The translations under genes and the position numbers were made by a program. 64,000 nt of DNA from an uncultured Desulfospira sp. (GTDB lineage: Bacteria; Desulfobacterota; Desulfobacteria; Desulfobacterales; Desulfobacteraceae), in NCBI GenBank assembly GCA_963663165.1, contig OY760175.1, positions 1,152,001 to 1,216,000 of the forward strand, in the 5' to 3' direction. The notes beneath the pieces are model-generated. The model ran no database searches, was not told the origin of the DNA, and saw only the letters and a program-made list of their open reading frames with translations. This document shows positions 15,926 to 47,637 of the stretch, piece by piece. Positions within the stretch are counted from its first letter, which is position 1, and each line of letters opens with the position of its first letter.

Positions 15926-15942
15926 TTTTATTAGCGGTCTAA

Positions 15943-16376: not shown

Positions 16377-16393
16377 CTGGCACCCAACTTGCT
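16377..16393 (+). promoter_or_regulatory. Sigma-54 (-24/-12) promoter
   Basis: CTGGCAC-ccaac-TTGCT, a consensus match about 90 bp upstream of the kinase gene. Confidence 0.7.
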
Positions 16394-16479
16394 ACTGTCC
16401 TGTATAGTTCAATATAGAACCAGGGGCTTGAAAGTCCTTTACTGATGAATGGCAATGAATTGCCAGGGGGGAAGACTTC

Positions 16480-27330: not shown

Positions 27331-30300
27331 CTACTCAATCGCCGGGCATTGATCATAGGTGAGATCTTCGCAGGCCGACACGTCACTGAACCATACGCCG
27401 CCAAGTTCTTTACACTGTTCATTCGTTCTTGCGTCCACACATCTCATATTCGGGCTTTGGTTAAAACTAAGACAGCAGGCGCCCACCGGGTCCTGGGTGG
27501 TTTCGCATTTAAATTCAGGATCGGAACATTGATATCCATCAGAAAACCGCCCGTTTAATTCTTCACAATCCGTTTTCCGCATAAAGTCTTCACACTGGAC
27601 ACCATATTCATTTTCATAACAGCAGGCGCCAATGAGGGTACACTTTTCTGATCTGATCAGCATTTCGCATGTTATCTTTTCATCTCCATGTTGATACCAT
27701 TCACCGCCAAGCACCTCGCACTGGGCATTTGTCCTGTCATCAAGGCAGCTTATGGTTGCCCCGTCAACGTTACTGAGGCAGCAGGCACCTAAATCCGGAC
27801 TGCCGTAGCATCCAGCGTCGGCACACTGTGTGTTTGGATAGAACTTTCCGGATAATTTGTTACAATTGGTTTCCAGCATCCAGTTGGCGCATTTGGCACC
27901 TGTCGTATCTTTATAGCAACAGGCCCCATAGGGCGCGCATTCAGTTTCTGAAAGATATGCACAGACCCCGTCTTCACTCCATGAACCCTGGAGGATCTTA
28001 CATTTATACTCTGTCAGGTTGTCCAGACATTGTACCGGGAATACACCAGACTCATTTACATAGGAAATCTTGGGATGGCAACAGGAACCGGTGGCCGCAG
28101 GAACCGGACACTCTTCAGATGTCAGGTCTGAACACAGGCGATCGGCAAAGAAGGATCCGCCGGCATCAGAACAGTCACTGCCGGTCACATTGTCATTGCA
28201 CATCGCAGTGGTTGTGCCCCCGGACACCATGGTTATACAACAGGCCCCGGTGGCCTCTGCAATGGCCGGGCATTGCCCATAGGTCAGTTCAGAGCACTGG
28301 ACACCGTCTTCGTCCCCGTCTTCCGGCTCGAACCAGGTGCCGCCGATACTGGCGCACTGGATCTGGGTTCTTGCATCAATACACCTTACCGGCGTGATCG
28401 CGTCCGAATCCTCAGTGGTCAGACAGCAGGCACTCACCACCGGGGGATCTACACATCCGGCCTGGGCACAGGTCTCATTTGGATGGAAGGTTCCGGATAG
28501 CTTGGCACAACTGGTTTCCAGCATCCAGTTAGCACATTTCGTCATACCAGTGGAGGTGTCTTTATAACAACAGGACCCATAAGGCGGGCACTCTTCTTCG
28601 GTGAGGTCCGCACAGATCCCGGCTTCAGACCAGGCCCCCTGGAGCAGCTTGCATTTATATTCGGTCAGGCTGTCCAGGCATTGCACCGGGAACACCCCGC
28701 TTTCGTTCACATAGGATATTTTCGGATGGCAGCAGGACCCGACGGCTGCCGGGCGCGGGCACTCCTCTGAGGTCAGATCCGAACACAGGCGGTTGGCATA
28801 AAGAGATCCGCCAGCGTCAGAACAGGCCGAACCGGTCATGCTGTCAAAACAGTTGGCTGTGGCTGAACTGCCGGAGCCGTAGCTCACGCAGCAGGCCCCT
28901 GACAACTCGGCGACTTCCGGGCATTGTGCATAGGTCAGATCCGCACAGGCTTCTTCTTCATGCCAGAAACCGCCAAGAGCGGTACACTGGGCCAGAGTTC
29001 TGGCGTCTAGGCACCTTACAGGGGTTGAAAGGCCTGAAGACGTAAGGCAGCAGGCGCCGGTTGAAACAGGGCCCGGACAACCGCTTGTCCCTGTCAGGTC
29101 TGAGCATTTCTCATTTGGATGGAAGGTTCCGGATAATTTATCACAATTGGTTTCCAGCATCCAGTTGGCACATTTATCCGCTGTACCGTCGTTATAACAG
29201 CATCCGCCATAGGACGGGCACTCTTCCTCTGAAAGGTCTTCACAGATGCCCCCTTCATTCCAGGTTCCCTGAAGCAGCTTGCATTTATATTCGGTCAGGC
29301 TGTTCAGGCATTGTACCGGAAACACCCCGCTTTCGTTGACATAGGAAATTTTCGGGTGGCAGCAGGACCCGACGGCTGCCGGACGCGGGCACTCCTCTGA
29401 GGTCAAATCCGAACACAGGCGGTTGGCATAAAGAGATCCGCCAGCGTCAGAACAGGCCGAACCGGTCATGCTGTCAAAACAGTTGGCTGTGGCTGAACTG
29501 CCGGAGCCGTAGCTCACGCAGCAGGCCCCTGACAACTCGGCGACTTCCGGGCATTGTGCATAGGTCAGATCCGCACAGGCTTCTTCTTCATGCCAGGAAC
29601 CGCCAAGAGCGGTACACTGGGCCAGGGTTCTGGCATCTAGACACCTTAAGGATGTTGAAAGGCCGGAAGATGTCAGGCAGCAGGCTCCGGTTGAAACAGG
29701 GCCAGGACAACCGCTTGTCCCCGTCAGGTCTGAGCATTTCTCATTTGGATGGAAGGTTCCGGATAGCTTGGCACAACTGGTTTCCAGCATCCAGTTGGCG
29801 CATTTATCCGCTGTACCGTCGTTATAACAGCATCCGCCATAGGACGGGCACTCTTCCTCTGAAAGGTCTTCACAGATGCCCCCTTCATTCCATGTGCCCT
29901 GAAGCAGCTTGCATTTATATTCGGTCAGGCTGTCCAGGCATTGCACCGGGAACACCCCGCTTTCGTTCACATAGGATATTTTCGGATGGCAGCAGGACCC
30001 GACGGCTGCCGGGCGCGGGCACTCCTCTGAGGTCAGATCCGAACACAGGCGGTTGGCATAAAGAGATCCGCCGGCATCAGAACAGGCCGAACCGGTCATG
30101 CTGTCAAAACAGTTGGCTGTGGCTGAACTGCCGGAGCCGTAGCTCACGCAGCAGGCCCCTGACAACTCGGCGACTTCCGGGCATTGTGCATAGGTCAGAT
30201 CCGCACAGGCTTCTTCGTCATGCCAGGAACCGCCAAGAGCGGTACACTGGGCCAGGGTTCTGGCATCTATACACCTTAAGGATGTTGAAAGGCCGGAAGA

Positions 30301-32547
30301 TGTCAGGCAGCAGGCTCCGGTTGAAACAGGGCCAGGACAACCGCTTGTCCCCGTCAGGTCTGAGCATTTCTCATTTGGATGGAAGGTTCCGGATAGCTTG
30401 GCACAACTGGTTTCCAGCATCCAGTTGGCGCATTTATCCGCTGTACCGTCGTTATAACAGCATCCGCCATAGGACGGGCACTCTTCCTCTGAAAGGTCTT
30501 CACAGATGCCCCCTTCATTCCATGTGCCCTGAAGCAGCTTGCATTTATATTCGGTCAGGCTGTCCAGGCATTGCACCGGGAACACCCCGCTTTCGTTCAC
30601 ATAGGATATTTTCGGATGGCAGCAGGACCCCACCCCGGCCAAAACCGGACATTCTTCATTCGTCAGGTCGGCACATGCGCGATCGGCAAAGAATGATCCG
30701 CCACCGTCCGTACAGTCTGTGATATTCAGCCCATCATTGCAGACAGCCGTGGTTGAGCCGTTTTCGGCCACGATGGTATTGCAGCAGGCCCCGGTTGTCC
30801 CTTCAATAGCCGGACACTGCTCAAGGGTCAGGTCGGCGCATTGATCTTCTTCAAACCAGTTGCCGCCAAGGGACTCACACTGGGTCTGTGTTCTGCCGTC
30901 GATACACCGAACCGGTGTGCTTGAAAGGTCACTGAGGCAGCAGGCCCCAACCGTTTCCGGAATAACCGAACATTGTTCCATGGTAAGTTCGGAACACTGC
31001 TGATCAGCAAAAAAAGTACCGCCTAAAGTGGTACACTCTGCTGGAAGCTTCCCGTTGGCGCATTTGGCAATGCCTTCAGAATCCGTATAGCAGCATCCGC
31101 CATAGGGCGCACACGCTTCATCTGTGCATGCCCCCCCCTGGGTCCAGGTGCCCTGAAGCAGTTGGCATTGATATTCGGTCCGGTTTTCCAGGCATTGAAC
31201 CGGGAATACCCCGCTTTCATTGACATAGGAAATTTTCGGATGACAGCAGCTGCCTTTAAGGACAGCAGCCTGGCATTCTTCTGTTAAGAGGGTCTCACAG
31301 GAGCGGGATGCAAAAAACGACTCCCCTTCCCCCTCACATTGAGAAGCGGCCACGCCATCCTCACACATCCCTTCCAAACTCCGGCAGCAGGCACCGGTTT
31401 CACTGCCCGCCGCGCATTCGGCAGCGCTGAGATCAGAACACGACCGCTCCCCATAGAAAGACCCGTTCAGTTCATTTATGCATGCCTGCTCCGATACATT
31501 ATCATCGCATTTGACCACCGAGGGGCAATCTTCTTCTGAGTTATAGCAGCAGGCACCAAAGGGCGGGCATTCCGGCCCGGTTATTTCCGGGTTTATATCC
31601 GGATTCAAATCATCACAGTCACCTGAAATCCCATCAAGCTCCCCCTGGCTGTAGTATGTGTTATCGGGCCGGTTCTGCCCCCATACGCTTGTCCCGTCAG
31701 AATACCCGTCGCCATCCAGATCCCTGTACCAGTGAAACTTACCCATGCTTTCCGAGAAAAACCCCAGATCCGCCCCGTCAACATCACCGTCCGAGGTGAT
31801 ATCCAGCCCCAGGGTGGGATCGTACAGCAACTGAACTTCCGTTTGGGAAAGGGTCCGGCCGTATATGCGCACATCATCCATTTCACCGGAGAAAAAATGG
31901 GCCGGGGCGGCACCGCTCCATGACGCCCCCATGGCAATGGGCAGGCCGGTGATATCTTCAATGGGATCAAAATGGCTTTTGGACCACAACAGCCTGCCGT
32001 TTTTGTAAAACAGGACCCGGCTGTAAAAAGCACTGGCCTTTTCCACCACAACGGCGATGTGCTGCCAGCCAATGGTCACGTCTCCGGCAGCATGGGATTC
32101 CCCATGAAGGCTGACCAAATAACGATCGTCTGCAGAAAAACCGACGCTGACTATTGGTATTGAACCTGAGGATTGTTTCCCAAAAAATGTTTTCCCGGCT
32201 GTGGTCCCCTGGGGGTTGACCCACAGGGACAGGGAAAAAACCGAGGGCAGGTCAAAGCTGCCGGCCTGGATATGAGCACCGGTCCCGTCAAAAGAATAGG
32301 CCCTGCCGGGATTCCCGGACCGGTCCGCTGCCAGGGCGACACTATATGCAGTCCCGTCATACCCATTGGGCCCCATATCCAACACATTGCCGTCAAGGGG
32401 ATAATACGAGATCAGGCCGGCCGGCAGCTCGGCGGACACCGGGACGGTTACCCCTAAAACGCTGATTAAAAACATGCCCACCCAGCAGACCGCCTGGATG
32501 AAAAAAAGTTTCCCGGGGATTGATTTTATATTGCGTGTGGTATTCAT
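27331..32547 (-). CDS. Giant secreted protein: signal peptide, LamG/ConA-like domain, Ca/metal-binding motifs, 27 six-Cys 'GxCC' modules
   Basis: YYPLDGN...WQHIAVV...GEMDDVRIYGRTLS (LamG-like); WYRDLDGDGY...GDCDD (MopE-like motif); G[A/S/G]CC units counted in the translation. Confidence 0.85.
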   Translation of the reverse strand: MNTTRNIKSIPGKLFFIQAVCWVGMFLISVLGVTVPVSAELPAGLISYYPLDGNVLDMGPNGYDGTAYSVALAADRSGNPGRAYSFDGTGAHIQAGSFDLPSVFSLSLWVNPQGTTAGKTFFGKQSSGSIPIVSVGFSADDRYLVSLHGESHAAGDVTIGWQHIAVVVEKASAFYSRVLFYKNGRLLWSKSHFDPIEDITGLPIAMGASWSGAAPAHFFSGEMDDVRIYGRTLSQTEVQLLYDPTLGLDITSDGDVDGADLGFFSESMGKFHWYRDLDGDGYSDGTSVWGQNRPDNTYYSQGELDGISGDCDDLNPDINPEITGPECPPFGACCYNSEEDCPSVVKCDDNVSEQACINELNGSFYGERSCSDLSAAECAAGSETGACCRSLEGMCEDGVAASQCEGEGESFFASRSCETLLTEECQAAVLKGSCCHPKISYVNESGVFPVQCLENRTEYQCQLLQGTWTQGGACTDEACAPYGGCCYTDSEGIAKCANGKLPAECTTLGGTFFADQQCSELTMEQCSVIPETVGACCLSDLSSTPVRCIDGRTQTQCESLGGNWFEEDQCADLTLEQCPAIEGTTGACCNTIVAENGSTTAVCNDGLNITDCTDGGGSFFADRACADLTNEECPVLAGVGSCCHPKISYVNESGVFPVQCLDSLTEYKCKLLQGTWNEGGICEDLSEEECPSYGGCCYNDGTADKCANWMLETSCAKLSGTFHPNEKCSDLTGTSGCPGPVSTGACCLTSSGLSTSLRCIDARTLAQCTALGGSWHDEEACADLTYAQCPEVAELSGACCVSYGSGSSATANCFDSMTGSACSDAGGSLYANRLCSDLTSEECPRPAAVGSCCHPKISYVNESGVFPVQCLDSLTEYKCKLLQGTWNEGGICEDLSEEECPSYGGCCYNDGTADKCANWMLETSCAKLSGTFHPNEKCSDLTGTSGCPGPVSTGACCLTSSGLSTSLRCLDARTLAQCTALGGSWHEEEACADLTYAQCPEVAELSGACCVSYGSGSSATANCFDSMTGSACSDAGGSLYANRLCSDLTSEECPRPAAVGSCCHPKISYVNESGVFPVQCLNSLTEYKCKLLQGTWNEGGICEDLSEEECPSYGGCCYNDGTADKCANWMLETNCDKLSGTFHPNEKCSDLTGTSGCPGPVSTGACCLTSSGLSTPVRCLDARTLAQCTALGGFWHEEEACADLTYAQCPEVAELSGACCVSYGSGSSATANCFDSMTGSACSDAGGSLYANRLCSDLTSEECPRPAAVGSCCHPKISYVNESGVFPVQCLDSLTEYKCKLLQGAWSEAGICADLTEEECPPYGSCCYKDTSTGMTKCANWMLETSCAKLSGTFHPNETCAQAGCVDPPVVSACCLTTEDSDAITPVRCIDARTQIQCASIGGTWFEPEDGDEDGVQCSELTYGQCPAIAEATGACCITMVSGGTTTAMCNDNVTGSDCSDAGGSFFADRLCSDLTSEECPVPAATGSCCHPKISYVNESGVFPVQCLDNLTEYKCKILQGSWSEDGVCAYLSETECAPYGACCYKDTTGAKCANWMLETNCNKLSGKFYPNTQCADAGCYGSPDLGACCLSNVDGATISCLDDRTNAQCEVLGGEWYQHGDEKITCEMLIRSEKCTLIGACCYENEYGVQCEDFMRKTDCEELNGRFSDGYQCSDPEFKCETTQDPVGACCLSFNQSPNMRCVDARTNEQCKELGGVWFSDVSACEDLTYDQCPAIE
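28630..30630 (-). repeat. 630-bp tandem repeat (about 3 near-identical copies) inside the Cys-rich gene
   Basis: Anchor gacggctgccgg at 28741, 29371 and 30001. Confidence 0.9.
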
Positions 32548-32549
32548 TT

Positions 32550-33422
32550 TTATTTGCCTTTGCTGAGTTCCTGATTAATTATTTCCTGAACAGCCGACAA
32601 ACTGCGGCCCTTCAACAGTTTCCCATTGATAAACAGGGTGGGTGTCCCTGTAACATCGGCCTTAGAGGCGTCCTGCATGTCTTTGGCCACCTGATCCCGG
32701 ACCGGTGCGCTGTTCATGTCAGTTTTCCATTTTTCCATATCCAGGGCCAGGGACCGGGCAATGTCTTCAATGCCTTCTTGAGTCAACTTTTCTTGGGCAA
32801 ACAGCTGATCGTGAAATTCCCAGAATTTTCCCTGATTGTGGGCAGAAAGGGCGGCCCGGGCAGCCTGATCCGCCAGGGGGTGGAGTCGGCGAAGGGGCAT
32901 GTTTTTAAACACCAGCTTTACCGTGGCCGGGTTGTTTTTGAGAATCATGTCCAACAAAGGATTCATTTTCCTGCAAAAGGGGCATTCAAAATCCGTGAAT
33001 AAAGCAAGGGTGACCGGCGCATCCTCAGGGCCTTTAAACGGGGAACCGCTGATGTCAATATGATGGACAAAATCAATGGACAGGGCGGTCAGTGTGTTTG
33101 TCCGGCCGTCAATGAGGTAAAGGGTTTCAGCCCGGGGAGAAACATCAATACCGGTGACCCCTTTGCCAACCGACACCCCGCCGGCCAGCTGTCCGTCGGT
33201 GTCATAGACCAGTACCTTGCTTTCTTTGGTCAGGACAAAAACGTATTTCCCGTCATCTGAATGAACGATATCCACAGGGCTTTCCGGCAGCCGCCATTGT
33301 TTGGCCATATGCCATTCAATGGCCACGGTGTTTTCAGGTTCAGGGGATGCGGCAAGGGTAAAATCGGCCAAACAAGCCGTCATCAGGGCCGCAAGAATAA
33401 AAAAATACGGTTTTAAATTCAT
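32550..33422 (-). CDS. Exported DsbA-family thiol-disulfide oxidoreductase with N-terminal beta-propeller-like segment
   Basis: Signal peptide MNLKPYFFILAAL..., FTDFECPFC, GTPT cis-Pro loop; stop lies 2 bp before the giant gene start. Confidence 0.85.
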   Translation of the reverse strand: MNLKPYFFILAALMTACLADFTLAASPEPENTVAIEWHMAKQWRLPESPVDIVHSDDGKYVFVLTKESKVLVYDTDGQLAGGVSVGKGVTGIDVSPRAETLYLIDGRTNTLTALSIDFVHHIDISGSPFKGPEDAPVTLALFTDFECPFCRKMNPLLDMILKNNPATVKLVFKNMPLRRLHPLADQAARAALSAHNQGKFWEFHDQLFAQEKLTQEGIEDIARSLALDMEKWKTDMNSAPVRDQVAKDMQDASKADVTGTPTLFINGKLLKGRSLSAVQEIINQELSKGK

Positions 33423-33555
33423 GGCGTTAAATGGTTTCCATCCATAAGCGGTTGTGTGGGGATATATCTTTAAAAATGTATAGGATAGGAACTCCCTTTT
33501 TGTCAAGGAAATGTGAAGAGAATGTGACGGATTGGCCGTTTTTAAAGCAGAAAAC

Positions 33556-34737
33556 TTAGCGCATGGCCTTGTCAATTGAGGCAAAAACCCTGTCCCAGGT
33601 ATATGCTTCCTTTGCCAGGCACCGGGCGTTTTTCTGAATCGCCTGCCACAGGGGTTTGTCCGTTAACAGGGAGTGGATGTCGCCGGCCATTTTGCCCGGA
33701 TCTTCGGATATAATCGCATGGACCCGGTCTTTGAGCGCCAGCCCCGCTGTTCCCGTCGGCGTTGTGGCCACGGGGATGCCCCGGTACAGGGCGTTAATGA
33801 TTTTAACCTTTATCCCGCCCCCGAATCTTACCGGGGCGACAAACACCCGGCATTGGTCATAATACGGGGTCAGATCCGCCACAAACCCGGTCAGGATAAT
33901 ATCTGCTTTAGACGCCACCAATCTTTGCAGTGCGTTGCCCGGGGCGGCGCCCACAATATAAAAGCGCAGCTGCGGGTTTTGGGCCTTGAGGCGGTCCCAG
34001 ACATGGGTTATAAACCAGGTCAGGCCGTCTGAGTTCGGCTCCCAGCTCAAGGTTCCCACATAAAGCAGCGTCACCTGTGTCCGGTCAAAATCAATGCCGG
34101 GCAGATCCAGCAGCCGGGCATCCCCTAAATGAAAGGTTTCATAGAATTTCTCCGGCCGGGTCCCGAGCCGTAACAAATCCAGCCGGTCATTGGGGGCGGC
34201 CAGGATGCCGTGGGCTTTTTTTCCGGCGGCTGTTTCCCAGGCCTTGATCCGTTTGGACTCCAGATAAATCACCAGTTTTTTAATGGGATTTCTTTCAAGG
34301 TGGGCCAGTTTCTCCCAGATCACATATTCCGCATTATGGGCATGCAGAATAATGCGGCCGCCAAACCCTTCCGGTATATAGGGGGCCATGATAAGGGAAT
34401 CTAAAAACAGGATATCATACCCGTCGGCAATTTGTTCGACATGGGCTTTAAACGTGGCCGAATAATTTCTGTACAGGGACAGCGGCATGTGTTTAAAATA
34501 GCTTTTCAAAAGATTCCGGATGGTCCTGGGTCTGCTCAGCATTTCCCCATAAAACGCCGTTGTTCTGATTTTTGACAACAGCATGGCTTCTCGCCGGTCA
34601 AAATTGTCCGCAAAAAACACACAAACAGCCAGGTCGTAATGCCTTGAAAGGTATTCGGCCATTTCCCACCGTTTTACGGCACCCCCGCTGACCGGCGGAT
34701 AGTCCAGCTGATGGGCAAGAAAAAGGATCTTTTTCAA
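33556..34737 (-). CDS. GT4-family glycosyltransferase
   Basis: PPVSGG, HNAEY, LYVGTLSWEPN, GGGIKVKIINAL. Confidence 0.85.
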   Translation of the reverse strand: MKKILFLAHQLDYPPVSGGAVKRWEMAEYLSRHYDLAVCVFFADNFDRREAMLLSKIRTTAFYGEMLSRPRTIRNLLKSYFKHMPLSLYRNYSATFKAHVEQIADGYDILFLDSLIMAPYIPEGFGGRIILHAHNAEYVIWEKLAHLERNPIKKLVIYLESKRIKAWETAAGKKAHGILAAPNDRLDLLRLGTRPEKFYETFHLGDARLLDLPGIDFDRTQVTLLYVGTLSWEPNSDGLTWFITHVWDRLKAQNPQLRFYIVGAAPGNALQRLVASKADIILTGFVADLTPYYDQCRVFVAPVRFGGGIKVKIINALYRGIPVATTPTGTAGLALKDRVHAIISEDPGKMAGDIHSLLTDKPLWQAIQKNARCLAKEAYTWDRVFASIDKAMR

Positions 34738-36527
34738 GGGGAAACCAGCCTTTGAAATACGGTCCTTTTATTGATCAGATCCTGGGGGGTTCCCAAGGTT
34801 TTTATCCGGCCGTTTTGAAGCAGTACAATCCGGTCACACTGTGTCAGGGCGCTCATGCGGTGGGCCACAATGATCATGGTCTTTTTGCCGTGGAGGGCAT
34901 TGACGGCCCGGGATAGATCCTGCTCGGTGTGTTCGTCCAAAGCCGATGTGGCTTCGTCAAATATGAGAAGCTCAGGGTCATGGTAAAGGGCCCGGGCAAT
35001 GGCAACCCGCTGTTTTTCCCCGCCGGACAGGGTCAGCCCCCGCTCCCCGATGTCTGTGTCCAGGCCCTGGGGCAGCGTAGATATAAAATCTTCCAGCTGG
35101 GCCATATGGACGGCTTTGGCCACTTTAGTGCGGTCAATTTCATGGGCATTGATCCCAAAGGCGATATTTTGTGCCAGGGTGTCATCGGTCAGATAGATGT
35201 CCTGGGGGACAAACCCGATTTTCCGGCGCCAGGATGCCATCCGGCTTTGAATATTCGCATCATCCACGAGAATCCGGCCTTTTAAAGGCGGTATCAGTCC
35301 CAGTATAAGATCGATAATGGTGCTTTTGCCACTGCCGGTAGGCCCCATAATGCCGATAAATTCTCCGGGATGAATGGTTATTGAAACATCGGTTAAAACC
35401 GGCCCGCGCTCCTTTTCATAGGTAAAGGAAACCTGATCCAGAACCAGATGGTGTTGAAAGGTCATGTCCGGCTGCGAATCCTGCGGGTCAGCAGATTCCG
35501 ATTCATATGTCGCTAAAAGTGCCATATCTGCGGCCAGAAGGTCTGCCTCAGCCCCGCCGTACCGGATGAGGTTGATATGCATGGACAGCCGGTTAAATGA
35601 CGGAATGGCCCGGAACCCGGCATAGGTAAAAAGGCCTAAAAGCGGCAGCACATCCTGCATCCCGCCGGCCTTTTCCATGGTTAAAAATACAATGATGAGC
35701 GGCACACAGACAAAAACGGTTTCCACCAGAAACCGGGGGCTGTGGTTCAAGGTGACCACCAGCCGCCTTTGCCGGGAAAGGGCGTTCTGGGTATGGCAAA
35801 ACATGTCATGCCAGAAGGATTCCCGGCCCATGACCTTTACTTCTTTTAATGCGCCAAACGCCTGCTGCATGGTCTTCAGGGCATTTTGCCGCATGTGTTG
35901 TTCCTGGACACCGAGCCTGGCAAACAGGCGGTGCAGCGCTATCAGCAGGGCGCCAAGCAAAAGAGACAGCAAAGAAACGCAACCGATCGTCATCATGGGA
36001 GAGGCCATGATCAGCACGGTAATAATGCCGCAAAGAATGAGGATTTCCGACAGGCCGGCGACAACGGATTCCAAGAGCAGGTGTACCGTGGCCTCCATGC
36101 CCTTGGAAGTCCGGTCAATAAGGGCGGCGGAGTTGCGGTGGAAATGAAAGGAAAACGGTGCGCCAAGATACCGCTTGAACAGGTTGGCGGACAGGAGGGC
36201 AATGGTGGTGTTGGTGAGCCGGCTTCTCAGATAGCAGGCGGTCAGCAGAAAAAAATTTTTCAGCATATAGTACAGACAGACCATTAAGACAAAGCTGAAT
36301 ATGACCGTTTTTTCATCTGCCAGGGCCAATCCCGTATAAAGCCGCGAGACCACGGGGATGTCATAAACAGCGGCCGGGTCCATCATCACCTTTAGCAGGG
36401 CATACACCGCAGCCGCGCCAAGCCCTTCGGCTGCGGCTTCTGCCGCAGAAAGCGGTATGAGGCCCGCCCAGTAACGGCGCATGGACGGCGGCAGGAGCAA
36501 AAAGGCGGTTTTTATTTGCTTAAACAC
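34734..36527 (-). CDS. ABC transporter, fused permease/ATPase, PglK/MsbA-like glycan-export type
   Basis: FHFHRNSA, KEVKVMG, GPTGSGKST, LSGGEKQR, FDEATSALD; sits between glycosyltransferase genes. Confidence 0.8.
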   Translation of the reverse strand: MFKQIKTAFLLLPPSMRRYWAGLIPLSAAEAAAEGLGAAAVYALLKVMMDPAAVYDIPVVSRLYTGLALADEKTVIFSFVLMVCLYYMLKNFFLLTACYLRSRLTNTTIALLSANLFKRYLGAPFSFHFHRNSAALIDRTSKGMEATVHLLLESVVAGLSEILILCGIITVLIMASPMMTIGCVSLLSLLLGALLIALHRLFARLGVQEQHMRQNALKTMQQAFGALKEVKVMGRESFWHDMFCHTQNALSRQRRLVVTLNHSPRFLVETVFVCVPLIIVFLTMEKAGGMQDVLPLLGLFTYAGFRAIPSFNRLSMHINLIRYGGAEADLLAADMALLATYESESADPQDSQPDMTFQHHLVLDQVSFTYEKERGPVLTDVSITIHPGEFIGIMGPTGSGKSTIIDLILGLIPPLKGRILVDDANIQSRMASWRRKIGFVPQDIYLTDDTLAQNIAFGINAHEIDRTKVAKAVHMAQLEDFISTLPQGLDTDIGERGLTLSGGEKQRVAIARALYHDPELLIFDEATSALDEHTEQDLSRAVNALHGKKTMIIVAHRMSALTQCDRIVLLQNGRIKTLGTPQDLINKRTVFQRLVSP

Positions 36528-37750
36528 GGTCTGTCCCCATTGACTAATGATAATAGGATATTTTCTAATCGTCTTCCAAATACCGGCATAGAAAATAAGG
36601 CCTGGGCCCTTTTCTGGGCAGCTTTTCCCATGTCGGCGGCTCTGGCCGGATCAGCGATAAATGTTTTCATGGCCCGGGCAAAATCGCCGGCTGCCGGGTC
36701 ACACAAAAAACCGGTCAGCCCGTTCACGACGGTTTCTTTGGGTCCTCCCCGGTTGACCGCTATGACCGGCTTGCCGGCGGCCATGGCCTCGACAATCCCG
36801 ATGCCGAAATGTTCGTTAACACTGGTATAAACCATGATATCACAGTCCTTGAGCAAGCTTAAGCGCCGGCTGTCCGAAATGGAGGACAAAAAGACCACCT
36901 GGCCGTGCAGGTTTAACTGGTCTGCCTGTGCCTTTAAATCATCTAAGGTCTGCCGCTGCTCCGGGAGACGCTCATCACAGGCACCCGCCATGATAAGCTG
37001 TATTCCATGGAATGTCTCCGGTGAAACCGTCCCGCGAAGGGCTGCCAGGGCATCCAGGGCCAGGGCCAGATTTTTTTCAGGAGCAAACCGGTTGATGGAC
37101 AACAAATTGATCCGGCCTTTATCCGTTAATCCGGAATACATTGGCCCACTGCCCGCCGGGGTCAGAAATTGCGGGATATCAACGCCGGGATAAAGGACCT
37201 TGGGCGGTTTGCGTGAAAAATAAGGGAATGAATCTTTAAATGTCCGGGCTGTAAACTCACTGTTCACCAGGATCTGATGGGCAAACCGCATCCCAAACCG
37301 TTCCAGGCCGTTTACCGGCACCCTGTAAACCCGGTACAGCCCCTTTTTTTGAGGCGCAAGAAGGACATCCGGGTAATGGCCGTAAAACAAAATCTTTGCC
37401 CTGGATATCAGGCGGTAAAAGGGAATAACATGGGGCACCAGGTCACAAACCATAACGTCACAGCAGCGGGATGCCTGTTTCATGGCCAGGGCCATCACCA
37501 TCATCCGGGCAATGGCACAAGGGACGCGAAACCGGCCGGACAGGCCATGGGGGACGAAATTACCCGCGACCTTTATGGTCAGCATGGGGTTGCGTGTCTT
37601 CTCAAGACAATGGCAGGGATCATACCGGCCGGTAAAAATGGTAACCTCATGGCCCTGGTTCACAAGTTCAACCGCCGCATCAACCATCAGCCGTTCAGCG
37701 CCGCCAATGCCCAGATCCGGATGTAAAAATGCAATCTTGAGCCGTTTCAT
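36512..37750 (-). CDS. ALG2-like GT4 mannosyltransferase
   Basis: FLHPDLGIGGAERLMVDAA, KILFYGHYPD, ILVNSEFT, LLSINRF, NEHFGI, AVNRGGP, TGFLC occur in the same order as in eukaryotic ALG2. Confidence 0.85.
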   Translation of the reverse strand: MKRLKIAFLHPDLGIGGAERLMVDAAVELVNQGHEVTIFTGRYDPCHCLEKTRNPMLTIKVAGNFVPHGLSGRFRVPCAIARMMVMALAMKQASRCCDVMVCDLVPHVIPFYRLISRAKILFYGHYPDVLLAPQKKGLYRVYRVPVNGLERFGMRFAHQILVNSEFTARTFKDSFPYFSRKPPKVLYPGVDIPQFLTPAGSGPMYSGLTDKGRINLLSINRFAPEKNLALALDALAALRGTVSPETFHGIQLIMAGACDERLPEQRQTLDDLKAQADQLNLHGQVVFLSSISDSRRLSLLKDCDIMVYTSVNEHFGIGIVEAMAAGKPVIAVNRGGPKETVVNGLTGFLCDPAAGDFARAMKTFIADPARAADMGKAAQKRAQALFSMPVFGRRLENILLSLVNGDRPCLSK

Positions 37751-37986
37751 TTTTTGTTATGTTCCAAAAAACAAAATATCCCGTTAAAAAAAGTCTCCAA
37801 GGTTAGAATACGGCCTTAGACGCGATACGGTTTCATCATGTTGAGGCAGTATCAGGTCCAAAGTCGCCCCGTCAAGAAAAAAATAGCTTGAGAAAAAACC
37901 GCTGCTTTGGTTACCATGATGTTTTGGCAAATTAAAAATAATCCAGGCACACATAACAACAAAGAAGCGTACTATCGAGGTCACCC

Positions 37987-39414
37987 ATGATCGGTCCTGT
38001 GTTTTTTTTCATCCCCCTTGTATTTATCATTTTCCTTTGGCTCTGGTTCCGGTCAAAGACCGCATGGAAAAAGCCGCGCCGGCCAAATGAAACGGTTGTG
38101 GCGTTTTTCCATCCCAATGCCCTGTGCGGCGGCGGGGGAGAACGGGTCCTGTGGATGATGATCCATGCGCTGCAAAAAAGGGATCAGGCAAACGCGGTCC
38201 GGTACGTGATCTATCTGAGTGGGCCGGCCCCAGTGTCATTTTTTGAAGCATCCCGGAAAATCAAATCCCAGTTTAACATCCAACTGAAGGACCCTGTAGA
38301 ATTTATCCCGGTTAAGAAATCACACTTGATTGACGGGGACAGATACCGCCGTTTTACAATGATCCGCCAGGCCATCGGCTCCATCCGGCTGGCCTTTGAA
38401 TGCCTGACCCGGCTTTGCCCCGATTATTACGTGGACACCACCGGGTTTGCCTTTTGCTATCCCCTTGCCCGGCTGGCCGGCTGCAAGGTCATGACATACA
38501 CCCACTACCCGGCCATCAGCGCCGACATGGTATCTGTTGTCCGCGCTAAAACCAACGCCCACAATAACCAGGCCGTCATCGCGCAAAGCCAATGGCTGAC
38601 CGGAATTAAAATATTCTACTATGGTGTGTTTTCTCTTGTATACGGTCTTTGCGGGAAATGCGCCCACCGGGTCATGGTAAACTCCTCGTGGACATGGTCC
38701 CATATTCAGGCCATCTGGTCTCCAAAGGATATTCATATTGTGTTTCCCCCGGCGCCGGTTGAGCATTTAATGAACCTGCCCCTGGGCCCGCGGCAGAACC
38801 AGATTATCTCAGTGGCCCAATTTCGTCCTGAAAAACGGCACGATTTTCAGATCCGTGTGTTTGCCAACGTATTAGAAAGGTGCCGGAAGGAACGTATTAA
38901 GGAAGAACCCCGGTTGGTTCTCGTGGGCGGGTGCCGCAACAAAGCCGATGAGCAATACGTCAGGGACTTGAAAGAACTGGCCCGGCAGTTAGGGGTCCAA
39001 AGCCATGTCGTATTTGCCCCCAACGCGCCATACGAAAAACTGACAGCGTATTTAGGGTCGTCCAAAATTGGCCTGCACGCCATGTGGAACGAACACTTCG
39101 GCATTGGTGTGGTGGAGTACATGGCCGCAGGCTGCATTGCCGTGGCTCACAAAAGCGGCGGGCCTGCACTGGATATCCTTGTCCCGGCCCATGACGGGCC
39201 AAGGGGGTTCCTTGCCGATTCCATGGAGACCTATGTTGCCGCACTGTGCCATATTCTGCTTGGGGAACGGCCCGAAAAGGACCTTGAAAACATACGAATC
39301 CGAGGCCGTAAGCAGTGTCAGAAATTTTCCAACGACATATTTATCAAAAAAATACAGCGACTGATGGTCTTTACCGGCACATCTTTGTGTTTATTCTGGC
39401 CAGCGCCATTTTAG
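37987..39414 (+). CDS. ALG11-like GT4 mannosyltransferase with N-terminal membrane anchor
   Basis: AFFHP..GGGGERVLW, HYPAISADM, VMVNSSWT, QFRPEK, GGCRNKAD, GLHAMWNEHFGIGVVEYMAAG, HKSGGP occur in the same order as in eukaryotic ALG11. Confidence 0.88.
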   Translation: MIGPVFFFIPLVFIIFLWLWFRSKTAWKKPRRPNETVVAFFHPNALCGGGGERVLWMMIHALQKRDQANAVRYVIYLSGPAPVSFFEASRKIKSQFNIQLKDPVEFIPVKKSHLIDGDRYRRFTMIRQAIGSIRLAFECLTRLCPDYYVDTTGFAFCYPLARLAGCKVMTYTHYPAISADMVSVVRAKTNAHNNQAVIAQSQWLTGIKIFYYGVFSLVYGLCGKCAHRVMVNSSWTWSHIQAIWSPKDIHIVFPPAPVEHLMNLPLGPRQNQIISVAQFRPEKRHDFQIRVFANVLERCRKERIKEEPRLVLVGGCRNKADEQYVRDLKELARQLGVQSHVVFAPNAPYEKLTAYLGSSKIGLHAMWNEHFGIGVVEYMAAGCIAVAHKSGGPALDILVPAHDGPRGFLADSMETYVAALCHILLGERPEKDLENIRIRGRKQCQKFSNDIFIKKIQRLMVFTGTSLCLFWPAPF

Positions 39415-41182: not shown

Positions 41183-42802
41183 TCATGCCTCAGACGGTTC
41201 CGGGTCAGATGCCGATGGCACAGCCGGGTAGAGCGGGTTCCATTGCCCTGAAACATGAATCAGGTAATGCTCTGTGGGAAGCTGCTCCAAAAACGGCGGA
41301 TCTCCCAGCCAGCGGCGGTGTTGCTGCCAGGCGGCCACTTCCAGGGCCCCCCTTGGGCTGCGCAGGGAACCATCAGATGCGATCTCGCTGAACTTTAAAC
41401 GGTGGCTTCTGACGGGGAGATCCCCTTTCCGGAGTATTTCCAGCCGGCCGTGAACGTGAAGACCGTATTTTTCAGCGTTTCTGGCAAAATGGGTTTGTTC
41501 AAACAGGACAAAGGCGCTGGCGGTCAGACTGTTCAGGCAGTCATAGGCCCCCTGGATGAACTCAAACGTCTTTTCAAGGTCATGGTCTGTGCTGGTGGGC
41601 AGGCCAAAAATCATCAGGCCCATATTTGAAATCCCGGCCAGGCTGCCCGCCTCCAGGACCTTTTGAATATCCGGCACCACCGTTCCCTTGTTCACCAGAT
41701 CCAGCAGGCGCTGGGACCCGGTCTCAATCCCCCACCCGATCCACCGGCACCCGGCAGCTGACCAGAGAGCCATGCGGCCGGGGGTGCAGTCCCGGGTGGG
41801 GCGGCCCAGAATATGAAGGTTCACCGACAGCCCCCGGGCCAGAATCGCCTCACAGATGGCATCCATGTCTTCTGGCTGAATAAACTCGTCTGCCGAATAA
41901 AAATAGCGAACCCCCAGGGTCCGGGCATAGGTTTCAATTTCAGAAACAAAGGCCTGGGCATTTTTTTTCCGGAACCCCCCAAAGGAAAAATTATGGGAGC
42001 AGAACCGGCAGCGCCGCCAGGCACAGCCTCTGGAAAAAAGAACCGGCAGAACCGGTTCCGGGTTGAAGTATGCCTCCAGGGGAAGCCTTGAAAAATCGGG
42101 TGGCGGCAACGCTTCCAAGGAAGGGGCTGACCTGGAATTGACCTGAATCCCCCAGCCGGATCTGTACACCAGGCCGGGGACCCTGGAAAAGTCCGTTTTC
42201 CGGCAAAGGGCTGCCAGAGCGCCCTCCCCTTCCCCCTTTACGATACCGTCAATTTCCGGTACAGCGGTGAGCAGGTCTTTTACAGACAGGGCAGACATCA
42301 TGGCCCCGCCCATCACCAGGCAAGCCTTCCGGCCTGTGCCGGCCATGGCCTGATTTACTGACACGGCCAGGGCGGCGGCAAAGGGCACCTGTTCAGGGAA
42401 CAGAACCGAAACCCCGATCAGCTCGGGGTCAAAGGACAGAACCTGTTCGGTCATGGCCCCCAGCAAGGAGATGAATTTGGGGTCAGATGATCCGGCAGCG
42501 ACAAAATTTTTGGCCTGTTCCACCAGCCCGGCCATGGCCTGCCTGATCCGGTTCCAGGCTGTTTTGTGGAAAAGGGTAAGGCCGGGGTCCAGAAAATTCC
42601 CCTGCAGGCCCCGGACAAAGGCCATAAGGTCCTGACCGCCAGGGTCTTCACCTGCAGCTCTGATCCAGGCTGCGATATTCAGATCCACCAGGCGCACAGC
42701 CGTTCCGGGAACGGCCCATTCAACAAAAGGGGCCAGCGATGCAATCCCTAACGGCACATAGGTTGCCCCGGCCCCGGGCGGAAAAACAAGAACCACTCTC
42801 AA
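41183..42802 (-). CDS. B12-binding domain radical SAM protein
   Basis: PLGIASL, GEGE, SRGCAWRRCRFC, GIETGSQRLL. Confidence 0.85.
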   Translation of the reverse strand: MRVVLVFPPGAGATYVPLGIASLAPFVEWAVPGTAVRLVDLNIAAWIRAAGEDPGGQDLMAFVRGLQGNFLDPGLTLFHKTAWNRIRQAMAGLVEQAKNFVAAGSSDPKFISLLGAMTEQVLSFDPELIGVSVLFPEQVPFAAALAVSVNQAMAGTGRKACLVMGGAMMSALSVKDLLTAVPEIDGIVKGEGEGALAALCRKTDFSRVPGLVYRSGWGIQVNSRSAPSLEALPPPDFSRLPLEAYFNPEPVLPVLFSRGCAWRRCRFCSHNFSFGGFRKKNAQAFVSEIETYARTLGVRYFYSADEFIQPEDMDAICEAILARGLSVNLHILGRPTRDCTPGRMALWSAAGCRWIGWGIETGSQRLLDLVNKGTVVPDIQKVLEAGSLAGISNMGLMIFGLPTSTDHDLEKTFEFIQGAYDCLNSLTASAFVLFEQTHFARNAEKYGLHVHGRLEILRKGDLPVRSHRLKFSEIASDGSLRSPRGALEVAAWQQHRRWLGDPPFLEQLPTEHYLIHVSGQWNPLYPAVPSASDPEPSEA

Positions 42803-43110
42803 TATCTTTATCTCCAGTTAATCCAGACGGTTACCATTTTCAAACAAAAATGGGCGATAACCTCTATCACCATTTTCAAGCTTGGGCAAGTTGAAAATCC
42901 ACTTTAATATCCGGCCCGGGTTGAAATTGAAAAAAACTGTTTAGCACATCGTTTTATGGGTGAACTTGAATCGTCCTCATTCAAAACGGCAGAACAGTTA
43001 AACCAGGGGATTTAACATGTTAAACGCCTTTTATTTCAGAACGGTTTACATGGTCTTTGAAAACAGTCTAAAATAGAGATAAACAATCTGTGAAAAGCAA
43101 AGAGGTTATT

Positions 43111-43602
43111 ATGGAGAGACGTTTCGGTCCTGAATATGCGTCCCTGGAAGATCCATCATTTATTCCCAAATACAAGGCCGCCTGTTTCTGCGGTGCCGTT
43201 CAATATGAGGTCAACGCCGACCCGGTGGATGCCAAGATTTGCCATTGCCTGACCTGCCAGAGGCTGCACGGTGCCCCGATGCAGTGGGCGGCCATTTTCC
43301 ACAAGCGTCATGTGAGATTTACCGCCGGTTTGGAGACCCTGGTGTTTTATAACAGCGAGCAGGACAGGCCGGAGCGCATTCTCCCCTGCAAGGTTCGCTG
43401 CGGCCGGTGCGGCACACCCATTGCCGATGAAGGACGCAGGATGTGGCTGGCGTTCCCGGAATTGTTTGATTTCGGATATCCTGTAAAAATACCGGCCCCA
43501 TTTAAACCAACCTGCCATATTCTATACGGCACGAGGGTCATAGAGCCTCAGGACCATCTGCCCAGGTGGTCCGGACACAAAAACCATTCCACACTGATGT
43601 GA
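43111..43602 (+). CDS. GFA (glutathione-dependent formaldehyde-activating/CENP-V) family protein
   Basis: CFCGAV, CHCLTCQR, CGRCGT zinc ligands. Confidence 0.88.
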   Translation: MERRFGPEYASLEDPSFIPKYKAACFCGAVQYEVNADPVDAKICHCLTCQRLHGAPMQWAAIFHKRHVRFTAGLETLVFYNSEQDRPERILPCKVRCGRCGTPIADEGRRMWLAFPELFDFGYPVKIPAPFKPTCHILYGTRVIEPQDHLPRWSGHKNHSTLM

Positions 43603-43669
43603 CCATGCCGTTCATTGGAAGACCGTGTTTTGTGAATTCAGAATCTTTCATTACGGCCTGTTTGGGGCC

Positions 43670-43849
43670 TTATCCACTGGAAATAATATACGTTCCATCC
43701 AGCCGTTTCCACATATCCTCCAATTTCTGGTCAAGATCAGACACGGCCAGCTCATATTCTTCCGGTGTTATTTTTCCGGCGTTCAGTTTGGTCTGAATCA
43801 TGAAAAGTTCATCATCATACCATTTATCAGGATCAAAATTATAGGTCAT
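43670..43849 (-). CDS. Small hypothetical protein (59 aa), missing from the ORF track
   Basis: MTYNFDPDKWYDDELFMIQTKLNAGKITPEEYELAVSDLDQKLEDMWKRLDGTYIISSG*. Confidence 0.6.
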   Translation of the reverse strand: MTYNFDPDKWYDDELFMIQTKLNAGKITPEEYELAVSDLDQKLEDMWKRLDGTYIISSG

Positions 43850-44004
43850 GGCTTAATTGGGGTAAAGGGTTCGCTGCCTCTTCCGGCGTCAAAAAGAATC
43901 TGAGAGATATTAAAAAACCATGAGATCTCCAATTTTCAAATTCGACATCGCTGCTTACTGATTTTTATATCAAGACATGGATCAAAATTCAATCAATGTC
44001 ACTC

Positions 44005-44128
44005 CAATGTCATTAACTTAAGCGTTAATACAAGAAACTGGAAACAAGAGACAAGAGGGTGAAGCACCGTTGGCGCCCATTTTATACCCCCTGCGCGCTA
44101 TGCCAAATTTCTTAAGTTAATGGCATTG
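44005..44128. mobile_element. 124-bp MITE with IS4-like 18-bp terminal inverted repeats
   Basis: caatgtcattaacttaag / cttaagttaatggcattg (1 mismatch); flanks aatgtcactc / actgtcactc resemble a 10-bp target duplication. Confidence 0.75.
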
Positions 44129-44214
44129 ACTGTCACTCTTTTCATCATGGTCGTCCCGTCCTTTTCTCGCCCCGCCATACAACGATGATCCAGGGGCAAA
44201 ACCTTGGGGCTGCT

Positions 44215-44331
44215 GCTGCGACACCAGGGGCAGCCTTAAAAAACCGCCACAGACCCTTTGGGCAACACCACTGAATACGAATATGACGATGCCGGCAGGC
44301 GAAACAAAATCCGTTACTTTGCATCTTCAAC
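44215..44331 (+). pseudogene. RHS/YD-repeat gene remnant
   Basis: From 44249 translates TDPLGNTTEYEYDDAGRRNKIRYF; upstream DTRGSLK is in a shifted frame. Confidence 0.6.
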
Positions 44332-44459
44332 GGGTGCAATCCCATTTAGTGGCATGAACTGACATGTATCCAATTTTTCCGTTTTTCATGCTGCATTGAA
44401 TACTCTGCCCTCCCAAAAAAAGCTGGACTCCTGGCTCATGAAAGGTTATATAGATTTGC

Positions 44460-45332
44460 ATGAGCAGGACTTTAACCATTCAAGGACGTGAATTTTCAGA
44501 AGTTGATATACAAACGATACGCCATTTGATTAACGACAATCCCGCCTGGCACCGCACTCGTTTATCCAAAGAATTGTGTGCTCGCTGGGATTGGCGCACG
44601 GAAAAAGGTCTGCTCAAGGACATGGCCTGTCGAAGCATGCTGAGAAAACTTGAGCAAAAAGGGATGGTCACACTTCCCGTTGCCCGTCATAGCGGTAACC
44701 GTCAGCGGCGTATTCCCGATGTCCCCCATGATTGTAAGCCGATAGAAACCACTTTGCGTAAGATCCGCCCGATACAATTGATACCGGTATCGGGCCGTGG
44801 AGATATTGATGATTTATTCCATTGCCTTATGGATCGATATCATTACCTTGGGTGTAAAGGGTATGTCGGAGAACATATGAAGTATATGGCTTTTGATCGC
44901 AATTCTCGTCCGGTTGCCTGCCTGCTTTTTGGCTCAGCAGCATGGAAAACGGCCCCTCGTGACCGATTCATCGGTTGGGATAGGTCGGCTCGTCGCAGGA
45001 ACCTGCATATGACGACCAACAATACCCGATTTTTGATTTTGCCATGGATTCGAATTCCCCATCTTGCCAGTCATATTCTGGGTTCATGTCTTAGGCGGCT
45101 GAGCCGGGACTGGACAGCTAAATATGGTCACGATATCTGTCTGGTAGAAACTTTCGTGGATCGATCACGCTTTGCCGGAACTTGCTACCAGGCGGCAAAT
45201 TGGCAAAAAATTGGTCAAAGCAAAGGGCGAAGCCGTCAAGACAGGCACCACAGACTTCAGGTGCCGATAAAAGACATCTATGTATACCCGTTGACTTCCA
45301 ATTATAAAAAGCAGCTATGCACACAAACTTGA
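44460..45332 (+). CDS. DUF4338 (DruA-like) protein, IS-associated
   Basis: LKDMACRSMLRKLE, YHYLG, RDRFIGW, NNTRFLILPW, ETFVD, GTCYQAANW. Confidence 0.85.
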   Translation: MSRTLTIQGREFSEVDIQTIRHLINDNPAWHRTRLSKELCARWDWRTEKGLLKDMACRSMLRKLEQKGMVTLPVARHSGNRQRRIPDVPHDCKPIETTLRKIRPIQLIPVSGRGDIDDLFHCLMDRYHYLGCKGYVGEHMKYMAFDRNSRPVACLLFGSAAWKTAPRDRFIGWDRSARRRNLHMTTNNTRFLILPWIRIPHLASHILGSCLRRLSRDWTAKYGHDICLVETFVDRSRFAGTCYQAANWQKIGQSKGRSRQDRHHRLQVPIKDIYVYPLTSNYKKQLCTQT

Positions 45333-45389
45333 GGGTTTCAGTCATCGAAATGACAGGTAATTTTTCAACCTGCAATTCGAGGACTGATC

Positions 45390-47425: not shown

Positions 47426-47637
47426 CGAAACCCTCCACGCTTCCCTTTTTTTTGATCTGTTGAACCGACACGAACTTTATAGACCGTCCCGGGAAAGTCT
47501 TGTAATTCATCGCCTTCAAAAATTTCCTGTTCAAGTTGATCAAGCAGGGAGGATAAATCTTTTTTTATTTGAGGGTATTTTTTGGAAAGTTTTTTTAAAT
47601 CACGTTTAAACAGGCCAGTAAGTTCAATTTGAAACAT
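46465..47637 (-). pseudogene. Chimeric ORF: RelE/HigB-like toxin N-terminus (~71 aa) fused in frame to a transposase C-terminus
   Basis: FKRDLKKLSKKYP...YKVRV...KGKRGGFR|DPTDINLL. Confidence 0.8.

Follow-up and report, generated by a model that had tools for sequence, protein, structure and literature searches.

The question raised by this locus is what two genes resembling the eukaryotic mannosyltransferases ALG2 and ALG11 are doing side by side on a bacterial chromosome, and where they came from. They lie in a four-gene cassette at positions 33556-39414 of a window of 64,000 nucleotides (the whole stretch of DNA that was analysed) from an uncultured Desulfospira sp. The original prediction, made from the letters of the window, had read this cassette as a eukaryote-like pathway for an oligomannose lipid-linked glycan, acquired perhaps from eukaryotes and served by a PglK-like flippase. 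All four open reading frames (ORFs) are intact and, like the divergent gene pair, the 236-bp gap and the gene overlaps, were recovered at exactly the coordinates predicted:

33556-34737, minus strand: glycosyltransferase (GT) of family GT4, P0004, 393 aa; last gene of the minus-strand operon and third transferase of the cassette
34734-36527, minus strand: ATP-binding cassette (ABC) half-transporter with transmembrane and nucleotide-binding domains, P0003, 597 aa; candidate flippase for a lipid-linked glycan
36512-37750, minus strand: ALG2-family GT4, P0002, 412 aa; first gene of the minus-strand operon
37751-37986, between the ALG2-like operon and the ALG11-like gene: divergent intergenic region, 236 bp, from ORF coordinates
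37987-39414, plus strand: ALG11-family glycosyltransferase, P0001, 475 aa; N-terminal membrane anchor, ALG11_N and GT1 domains

The ABC transporter gene overlaps both neighbouring GT genes, by 16 bp on the ALG2-like side and 4 bp on the other, as in an operon. Read together with the rest of the genome, the cassette is predicted to be one half of a PglB-dependent N-glycosylation system, the half that probably builds and flips the lipid-linked glycan.

For P0001, the Pfam ALG11_N profile (PF15924) matched with an E value of 3.1e-71, covering positions 2-209 of the 209 in the profile and scoring 240.2 bits (cutoff 29.8), together with a GT1 domain (Glycos_transf_1, 3.8e-23); in a genome-level profile search, the protein was the sole PF15924 match in the window's genome (242.9 bits). 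The ALG2 and ALG11 motifs quoted in the original prediction were all present in the translations, an agreement far beyond chance; in P0001 they were AFFHPNALCGGGGERVLW, HYPAISADM, VMVNSSWT, QFRPEK, GGCRNKAD, and MWNEHFGIGVVEYMAAG. The predicted hydrophobic N-terminus could be read from the sequence at residues 3-21, followed by a basic stretch, and aligned with the eukaryotic anchors. Eight eukaryotic-type ALG11 sequences, six of them with an organism name, were 41-45% identical to P0001 and collinear with it from the anchor to the C-terminus, leaving 96 invariant columns that include the EX7E residues E369 and E377; plant, animal, and algal sequences were among the ALG11 proteins aligned end to end. 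Among 5.8 billion protein clusters, the nearest relatives in the best 120 of 3017 matches were three nameless sequences (86, 73, and 51% identity), followed by eukaryotic GDP-Man:Man3GlcNAc2-PP-Dol α-1,2-mannosyltransferases at 38-47% (E ∼1e-114 to 1e-107). The best GT4 match in the PDB reached only 21.7 bits. At its C-terminus (39370-39414), P0001 bears a 15-residue tail (the FTGTSLCLFWPAPF region), whereas its 86% and 73% relatives lack the tail and end at VFE.

The ALG2-like protein P0002 contained Glycos_transf_1 (4.2e-37) and Glyco_transf_4 (9.7e-14) domains by Pfam and the motifs LHPDLGIGGAERLMVDAA, FYGHYPD, VNSEFT, LSINR, NEHFGI, and AVNRGGP. It aligned with an ALG2-type protein from the choanoflagellate Bicosta minor (EukProt) at 38% identity, 290 bits, and an E value of 4e-99, and with any GT4 in the PDB at 65.8 bits at most. 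Its nearest Atlas clusters, both bacterial and arthropod, carry the ALG2 name. Bacterial relatives at 45-54% identity came from Desulfatiglans, Nitrospira, Binatia, and Deltaproteobacteria, many labelled α-1,3/α-1,6-mannosyltransferase by the Joint Genome Institute (JGI), and 15 bacterial relatives all keep the G-rich loop GIGGAER, which occupies residues 14-20 of P0002. In P0002 the EX7E motif is EHFGIGIVE, with the spacing and both glutamates kept and G in place of the V of the choanoflagellate motif, EHFGIVPLE. Among 401 sampled genomes of the phylum, only two, G038 and the window's own genome, had a protein resembling P0002 at E ≤ 1e-60. P0002 is grouped, with 86 support in a quick tree, in the ALG2 family, as one member of a broad bacterial family. 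On sequence evidence, P0001 is likewise a genuine ALG11-family member: the ALG11_N match, an ALG11 clade with 98/99 support in the 41-row maximum-likelihood (ML) tree described below, and the Bicosta minor alignment place the pair in the ALG families, as had been proposed, and not among the generic GT4s of lipopolysaccharide (LPS) or exopolysaccharide (EPS) synthesis.

The two remaining cassette proteins were of more general types. P0003 showed ABC_tran (1.4e-32) and ABC_membrane (1.2e-7) domains; its best single-half-transporter match in the PDB was PglK/WlaB (6hrc/5c73, E 1e-72, residues 77-576), and its best NCBIfam model was PglK (NF050066, 294.7 bits). As the cutoff of 1000 for this model was not reached, P0003 is filed only as a PglK/MsbA-type ABC exporter; the transporter class that had been predicted stood, short of the PglK equivalog itself. 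P0004 matched Glyco_trans_1_4 (1.1e-24) by Pfam, had only generic bacterial GT4s among nearby Atlas clusters, and was conserved in five other loci (L002, L003, L047, L049, and L065). It was considered as an ALG1 analog by homology and rejected, Atlas and Pfam both describing a generic retaining GT4 and the bacterial ALG1-like family being a different protein. GT4 is a retaining family (CAZy), so P0004 would not make the β-mannose of the eukaryotic core. It nevertheless seems to take the position that ALG1-like genes have in other bacterial clusters and may act once the chitobiose core is made and before the ALG2-like enzyme.

The original prediction noted that ALG1, ALG13/14, and an oligosaccharyltransferase (OST) are missing from the window, which agrees with the 14 ORFs at 24302-47637, the part of the window scanned gene by gene. 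A search of the whole genome for pglB/STT3 and GDP-mannose genes, which had been suggested as a check, was productive. The genome's one STT3/PglB-family gene (C1:6027307-6029496) encodes a PglB-type OST of 729 aa, P0404, with PF21436 (6e-14) and PF02516 (1.4e-6) domains, a match to Campylobacter lari PglB (E 1.7e-18), and a WWDKG motif. Overlapping the end of this gene is one for a GT28 protein of 383 aa with MurG-type N- and C-terminal domains, the pair spanning C1:6027307-6030637; the housekeeping MurG is encoded elsewhere, beside MraY at 2.70 Mb. Three ManC-type genes (PF01050) could provide for donor supply. RFT1 (PF04506) was not found, in a search that gave no positive control anywhere.

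The cassette and the OST/GT28 pair also travel together. All four cassette genes were found in two other assemblies with different flanks, L002 (86%), an uncultured Desulfospira sp. chromosome, and L003 (72%), a 'Proteobacteria bacterium' metagenome-assembled genome; one of these two assemblies is a 5.3-Mb chromosome. Both genomes (G401 and G402, the window's own being G000) carry the OST and GT28 genes adjacent to each other, at 86/83% and 68/68% identity, so that all 3 genomes with the cassette also have the pair. With P0404 as the query, no OST was found in G206, a genome of the same family that lacks the cassette, nor in G038. PF21436 was present in 61 of the 401 phylum genomes but was not found in any of 13 further genomes sampled from the window's order or family. 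With a PglB-type OST and a MurG paralog in exactly the three cassette genomes, the link to N-glycosylation is stronger than the original prediction could have known.

The strongest evidence that the window's cassette and the remote OST pair belong to a single system, as its two halves, came from physical clustering in metagenome contigs. When metagenomes were scanned with an alignment of ALG2-like proteins, 80 loci were obtained, many only 1-5 kb long, and these together with L002, L003, and L035 (83 loci in all) were searched with the window's proteins. An ABC ortholog adjoined the ALG2-like gene in 22 of the 83 loci; near that gene, a GT28 was found in 24, a short ALG11-like GT4 (∼400 aa) in 12, a PF00953 transferase in 9, a P0004-like GT4 in 5, and a PglB-like OST of the window's type in 4. 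A further cluster of STT3-type proteins of ∼994 aa occurred in 7 loci, and both members that were scanned are OSTs. In L065, whose ALG2-like protein has a near-identical match named Nitrospira sp., GT28, PglB-like, ALG2-like, ABC, short ALG11-like, and P0004-like genes all lie within one 9-kb cluster. L048 and L113 hold a core of GT28, PglB-like, and ALG2-like genes, and L098 also holds part of the arrangement; an ABC ortholog and a PglB-like gene share a cluster in L048 and L065. More widely, many metagenome contigs bring together ALG1-like, ALG2-like, short ALG11-like, GT28, PF00953, and STT3-type genes. The synteny in other bacteria that had been sought was therefore found, for the cassette itself in L002 and L003 and for related clusters in these contigs. 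Three further 'families' that recurred close to ALG2-like genes (clusters 6, 16, and 18) were discarded as spurious Arg/Ala/Pro-rich ORFs of high-GC contigs.

From the observed gene families, operon structure, conservation, co-occurrence, and clustering, we infer the sugars, linkages, and order of steps, as well as flipping and transfer to protein, as follows. A PF00953 enzyme would prime undecaprenyl phosphate with GlcNAc phosphate, and the MurG-like GT28 paralog, which could perform the step of ALG13/ALG14 in eukaryotes, would probably add the second GlcNAc on undecaprenyl-PP-GlcNAc. P0004 and the ALG2- and ALG11-family enzymes would then add hexoses at the cytoplasmic face, most likely mannose from GDP-mannose. 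The finished lipid-linked glycan would be flipped to the periplasmic side by the ABC half-transporter and transferred by the PglB-like enzyme to asparagine residues of exported proteins. The product would probably be a chitobiose-based oligohexose resembling the eukaryotic Man5GlcNAc2 without being identical to it, since ALG1, the β-1,4-mannosyltransferase, was not found. According to a recent preprint, ALG2 and ALG1 homologs from bacteria act like their eukaryotic counterparts, both in vitro and in yeast (Xu et al., bioRxiv 10.1101/2025.10.15.682550), and Desulfobacterota PglBs are described as active, with D. gigas HmcA carrying GlcNAc-Asn (PMC12229607).

The missing ALG1 was pursued through the bacterial clusters. 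The commonest neighbour of bacterial ALG2-like genes, at 31 of the 83 loci, encodes a GT-B protein of ∼414 aa that JGI names β-1,4-mannosyltransferase and that has NCBI records in Binatia and Deltaproteobacteria. ALG1 homologs tested by Xu et al. came from taxa including these two, and a Binatia homolog complemented yeast alg1. When seven members of this ALG1-like family were searched by tblastn against the window's genome, no hits were obtained at E ≤ 1e-3; G401 and G402 also gave no match, whereas G038 did. P0004-like genes (five loci) and ALG1-like genes (31 loci) never shared a locus, an exclusion that is suggestive only, as the contigs are short.

The failure to find an ALG1-like gene is the first of several observations that weigh against the N-glycosylation reading. 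Alg14 (PF08660) was likewise not found in the genome. The cassette and the OST pair are unlinked, 4.84 Mb apart in contig coordinates, and their co-occurrence amounts to roughly one event because the three carriers are kin. P0003, below the PglK cutoff, scored nearly as well against MsbA (285 bits) and HepA, and the best NCBIfam model for P0004 was an exopolysaccharide-associated one, TIGR03087 (PEP-CTERM/XrtA EPS glycosyltransferase; 170.9 bits, below the cutoff of 316.65). The only non-MraY PF00953 initiating transferase found (546 aa) lies in an exosortase EPS locus. In P0002, the EX7E motif has G in place of the V of eukaryotic ALG2, a residue found important by Xu et al., who report that a V-to-A change lowers activity. 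DNA sequencing runs from two studies contain the cassette stretch, and no RNA runs containing it were listed. Of the eukaryote-like glycan pathway first proposed, then, the co-occurrence with OST and GT28 and the clustering speak for a pathway of that kind, but the canonical eukaryotic route to Man5GlcNAc2 is not supported, given no ALG1, no Alg14, and a retaining third GT4.

A rival explanation is that the cassette makes a surface polysaccharide, an LPS O-chain or EPS such as an ABC-exported polymannan, unrelated to the PglB-like enzyme. The EPS-type best model of P0004, the exosortase locus with an initiating transferase of its own, and the lack of an OST among the window ORFs scanned all fit such a product, as does G038, where a Wzy_C protein (O-antigen ligase type) is encoded close to the ALG2-like gene and the search for a P0404-like OST found none. 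We nonetheless regard this explanation as unlikely. The exporter is a fused PglK/MsbA-type half-transporter, and the OST/GT28 pair accompanies the cassette in every cassette genome against a background of PF21436-free relatives in the order. In L048, L065, and L113, moreover, the PglB-like and ALG2-like genes are adjacent and divergent, and STT3/AglB-type OSTs occur in six ALG1-linked clusters (L080, L083, L093, L094, L104, and L124). The exosortase EpsH/PEP-CTERM locus itself (L027, C1:575000-595000) also contains genes for a tetratricopeptide-repeat protein and for Poly_export, Wzz/GNVR, and ParA-like proteins.

Among prokaryotes, full-length ALG11 is very rare. Of the 401 sampled phylum genomes, only that of the window gave an ALG11_N match. 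A pattern scan covering 185,579 prokaryote species, each by one genome, which used two peptide patterns and can miss divergent forms, returned 21 loci, of which only L002 and L003 matched over the full length; the other 19 matched the C-terminal GT1 part only, at 26-36%. The short ALG11-like family of the bacterial clusters is a different form: no ALG11_N match was found in the two members scanned, and all nine cases scored higher to ALG11 than to ALG2-like proteins.

To place the window's proteins, an alignment of 41 rows and 460 columns was used for a careful ML tree under LG+C20+F+G4 with posterior mean site frequencies (PMSF). Twenty rows had been dropped from an earlier set of 61 (6 of odd composition, 7 ALG11 representatives, 5 short ALG11-like sequences, of which 2 were identical duplicates, and 2 ALG2-like). 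This analysis replaced an approximately unbiased (AU) test on the quick 61-row tree, which was uninformative, its free search having ended 88 log-likelihood units (lnL) below the constrained search. The window clade (P0001, P0005, P0006, P0007, and P0376) had 100/99 support; P0007 and P0376, its nearest further members, come from contigs of 2.2 and 34 kb and entered the tree as protein sequences. The clade joined a metagenome protein, P0264 (90/75), and then Spongospora subterranea (83/50), within a deep ALG11 radiation that is an unresolved star. The clade shares the whole ALG11 stem of 1.27 substitutions and has a short stem of its own, 0.32. Most of the 'eukaryotic-type' rows are nameless, those with names including animals, plants, Picocystis, two red algae, Spongospora, and Pharyngomonas; forcing all 25 into one clade cost 10.15 lnL (p-AU 0.303), so that nested and sister positions of the window clade are indistinguishable. 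In a separate quick tree, for which P0004-like GT4s provided the root, the short ALG11-like family of bacteria grouped with ALG11 (93), and eukaryotic-type ALG2 (98) nested among bacterial ALG2-likes, nearest the ALG1-linked ones, with the window's ALG2-like protein in a separate bacterial subclade; in these ALG11/ALG2 trees, long branches meet and the rooting is weak.

Two origins can be weighed against these results. The ALG2-like, ABC, GT4, PglB-like, and GT28 genes are of bacterial stock and the ALG11 gene is of eukaryotic type, so that of the proposed acquisition from eukaryotes only the ALG11 part stays plausible (with its direction at p-AU 0.303), the ALG2-like gene belonging to a large bacterial family. 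We propose that the ALG11 gene occupies the role that a short ALG11-like gene has in related clusters. On balance, we lean towards capture of ALG11 from a eukaryote by an ancestor of Desulfobacteraceae-like bacteria, in which it would have replaced the short ALG11-like gene of an existing N-glycosylation cluster. The scarcity of full-length ALG11 in the phylum and in the species scan is as expected for such an event, and the best tree sets the window clade within the eukaryotic radiation, on the shared ALG11 stem. P0001 also keeps the eukaryote-type anchor and ALG11_N, a domain for which the two scanned members of the short family gave no Pfam match, and in L065 a cluster that is equivalent in other respects carries the short gene. 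Against capture, the nesting inside eukaryotes lacks strong support, no donor lineage was identified, and the composition of the ALG11 gene is fully host-like; any transfer must accordingly be old.

The opposite direction, in which the bacterial ALG11 clade is a relic of the lineage that gave eukaryotes their ALG11, and the ALG1/ALG2/ALG11 module came from bacterial N-glycosylation clusters, seems to us quite improbable. The AU test does not reject a bacterial clade outside all eukaryotic-type ALG11, and the grouping and scores of the short ALG11-like family, the nesting of eukaryotic-type ALG2 among bacterial proteins, and the many metagenome clusters with ALG1-like to STT3-type genes are all in its favour. 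Bacterial ancestry of ALG1 and ALG2 is also argued for by Xu et al. Against it are the extremely narrow distribution of full-length bacterial ALG11, the short stem of the bacterial clade inside a star-like eukaryotic radiation among whose members the best tree nests it, and a rooting that depends on very long branches. In published accounts, ALG2 and ALG11 are derived from a proteoarchaeal GT1 (Lombard 2016), and ALG11 is mapped to the oldest stratum solely through BLAST matches (Kifer et al.). A wider version of the same idea is just as doubtful. It holds that a natural bacterial N-glycosylation, built by eukaryotic cytosolic families (GT28/ALG13-14-like, ALG2, ALG11, and elsewhere ALG1) with ABC flipping and PglB/STT3 transfer, would include in full-length ALG11 a surviving relative of a cluster that eukaryotes inherited as a block.

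Contamination or an assembly chimera, which the purely eukaryotic relatives of P0001 beyond the three bacterial-type sequences (in the best 120 of 3017 matches) might suggest and which the original prediction had named as fatal to its reading, is ruled out for practical purposes: the genome is a single closed contig of 6,741,034 bp (estimated 96.7% complete, 1.1% contaminated), the gene lies 236 bp from a bacterial operon, the GC content of the four cassette genes, overall and at third codon positions (GC3), is ordinary for the host (GC3 rank 0.35-0.62 among the genome's long ORFs), the arrangement recurs in two independent assemblies, and the sequencing runs noted above come from two studies.

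Surrounding features were also recorded. The divergent intergenic region has one sigma-70-like match per strand (37875-37848, minus; 37888-37917, plus), but promoter-like matches region-wide numbered 11 against 6.3 (standard deviation 3.1) in shuffled sequences, and because this count is not above chance, the matches are not evidence of function. Directly downstream of the GT4 gene and on the same strand (27331-33584) are genes for a 1738-aa Laminin_G_3/ConA-like protein and a 344-aa DsbA-like thioredoxin protein, which might be exported substrates or helpers; the DsbA-like gene adjoins the cassette in L002 also, though not in L003. The flank at 41183-47637 is variable and encodes B12-binding radical SAM, GFA-domain, and DruA-like (Druantia) proteins and an ISNCY-family transposase.

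Several metagenome clusters carry unexpected neighbours. In L080 (6342-19053), the ALG1-like and ALG2-like genes lie beside GNT-I (PF03071, E 1e-108), MGAT4_cons (1e-25), GT2, and AglB-type STT3 OST genes, the first two being bacterial look-alikes of Golgi N-glycan branching enzymes within an ALG/OST cluster. L035, from G038 (10048-18844), combines ALG2-like and short ALG11-like genes with a GT17 (MGAT3-like, 9.6e-27), an 850-aa Wzy_C protein, and a GT2, together with UDP-sugar dehydrogenase/epimerase genes; an ALG1-like gene follows ∼13 kb further. Other recurring neighbours in the bacterial ALG clusters were a Stealth (CR1-4) protein and an FGE-sulfatase (L048, 2226-6406), a PMT_2 GT-C protein (L051, 6838-8370), and a sulfotransferase with DUF763 (L083, 14231-16663).

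The locus thus places a full-length ALG11 in closed bacterial genomes within a conserved cassette, which bears on the origin of the eukaryotic pathway and makes both the origin of ALG11 and the inheritance of the pathway as a block testable by assay and phylogeny. It is also a source of naturally bacterial enzymes, with a matched flippase and OST, for mannose-rich N-glycans in bacteria. Bacterial PglB systems are already well known. A full-text search, in which few subscription journals were covered, found no paper on bacterial full-length ALG11 or on this cluster architecture, and the Xu et al. preprint, in its available text, contains no analysis of ALG11 and no mention of 'gene cluster' or 'operon'.

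Set beside known systems, the individual enzymes and the assembly as a whole show both likenesses and differences. With eukaryotic ALG11 (GDP-Man:Man3GlcNAc2-PP-dolichol α-1,2-mannosyltransferase, GT4), P0001 has in common the architecture of anchor, ALG11_N, and GT1 and the invariant motifs GGGGERVLW, HYP.S.DM, MVNS, QFRPEK, and EHFGI..VE.MAAG. Unlike its eukaryotic counterparts, it is encoded on a bacterial chromosome beside a bacterial operon, its carrier is presumed to be a bacterial polyprenol, and its activity is predicted. Yeast ALG11 forms a complex with ALG1 (Gao 2004, as cited in PMC4973528), a partner of which no homolog was found in the window's genome. P0002 and the bacterial ALG2 homologs of Xu et al. 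share the GIGGAER loop and the EX7E spacing, and similar taxa are represented (Binatia, Deltaproteobacteria, and Pseudomonadota); P0002 differs in having G and not V in EX7E and in belonging to a genome without an ALG1 homolog. Whether P0002 is itself a protein assayed in that work was also considered and rejected, as the accessions tested there were absent from all 10 clusters that were looked up.

As a system, the closest parallel is the Campylobacter pgl pathway. The predicted logic is the same, with cytoplasmic assembly by GT4 enzymes on undecaprenyl-PP, an ABC half-transporter as flippase, and a single-subunit WWDxG OST. The window's transferases are of ALG type, not PglA/J/H/I, and the MurG-like GT28 implies a chitobiose core in place of bacillosamine; the system is also split over two loci, with a transporter that falls short of the PglK equivalog score. 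In engineered Escherichia coli, Man3GlcNAc2 has reportedly been made with yeast ALG13/14/1/2 and PglB, a combination that likewise joins ALG-type transferases to a bacterial OST on a bacterial lipid carrier. Compared with that synthetic system, the one described here lacks ALG1, occurs naturally, and includes ALG11.

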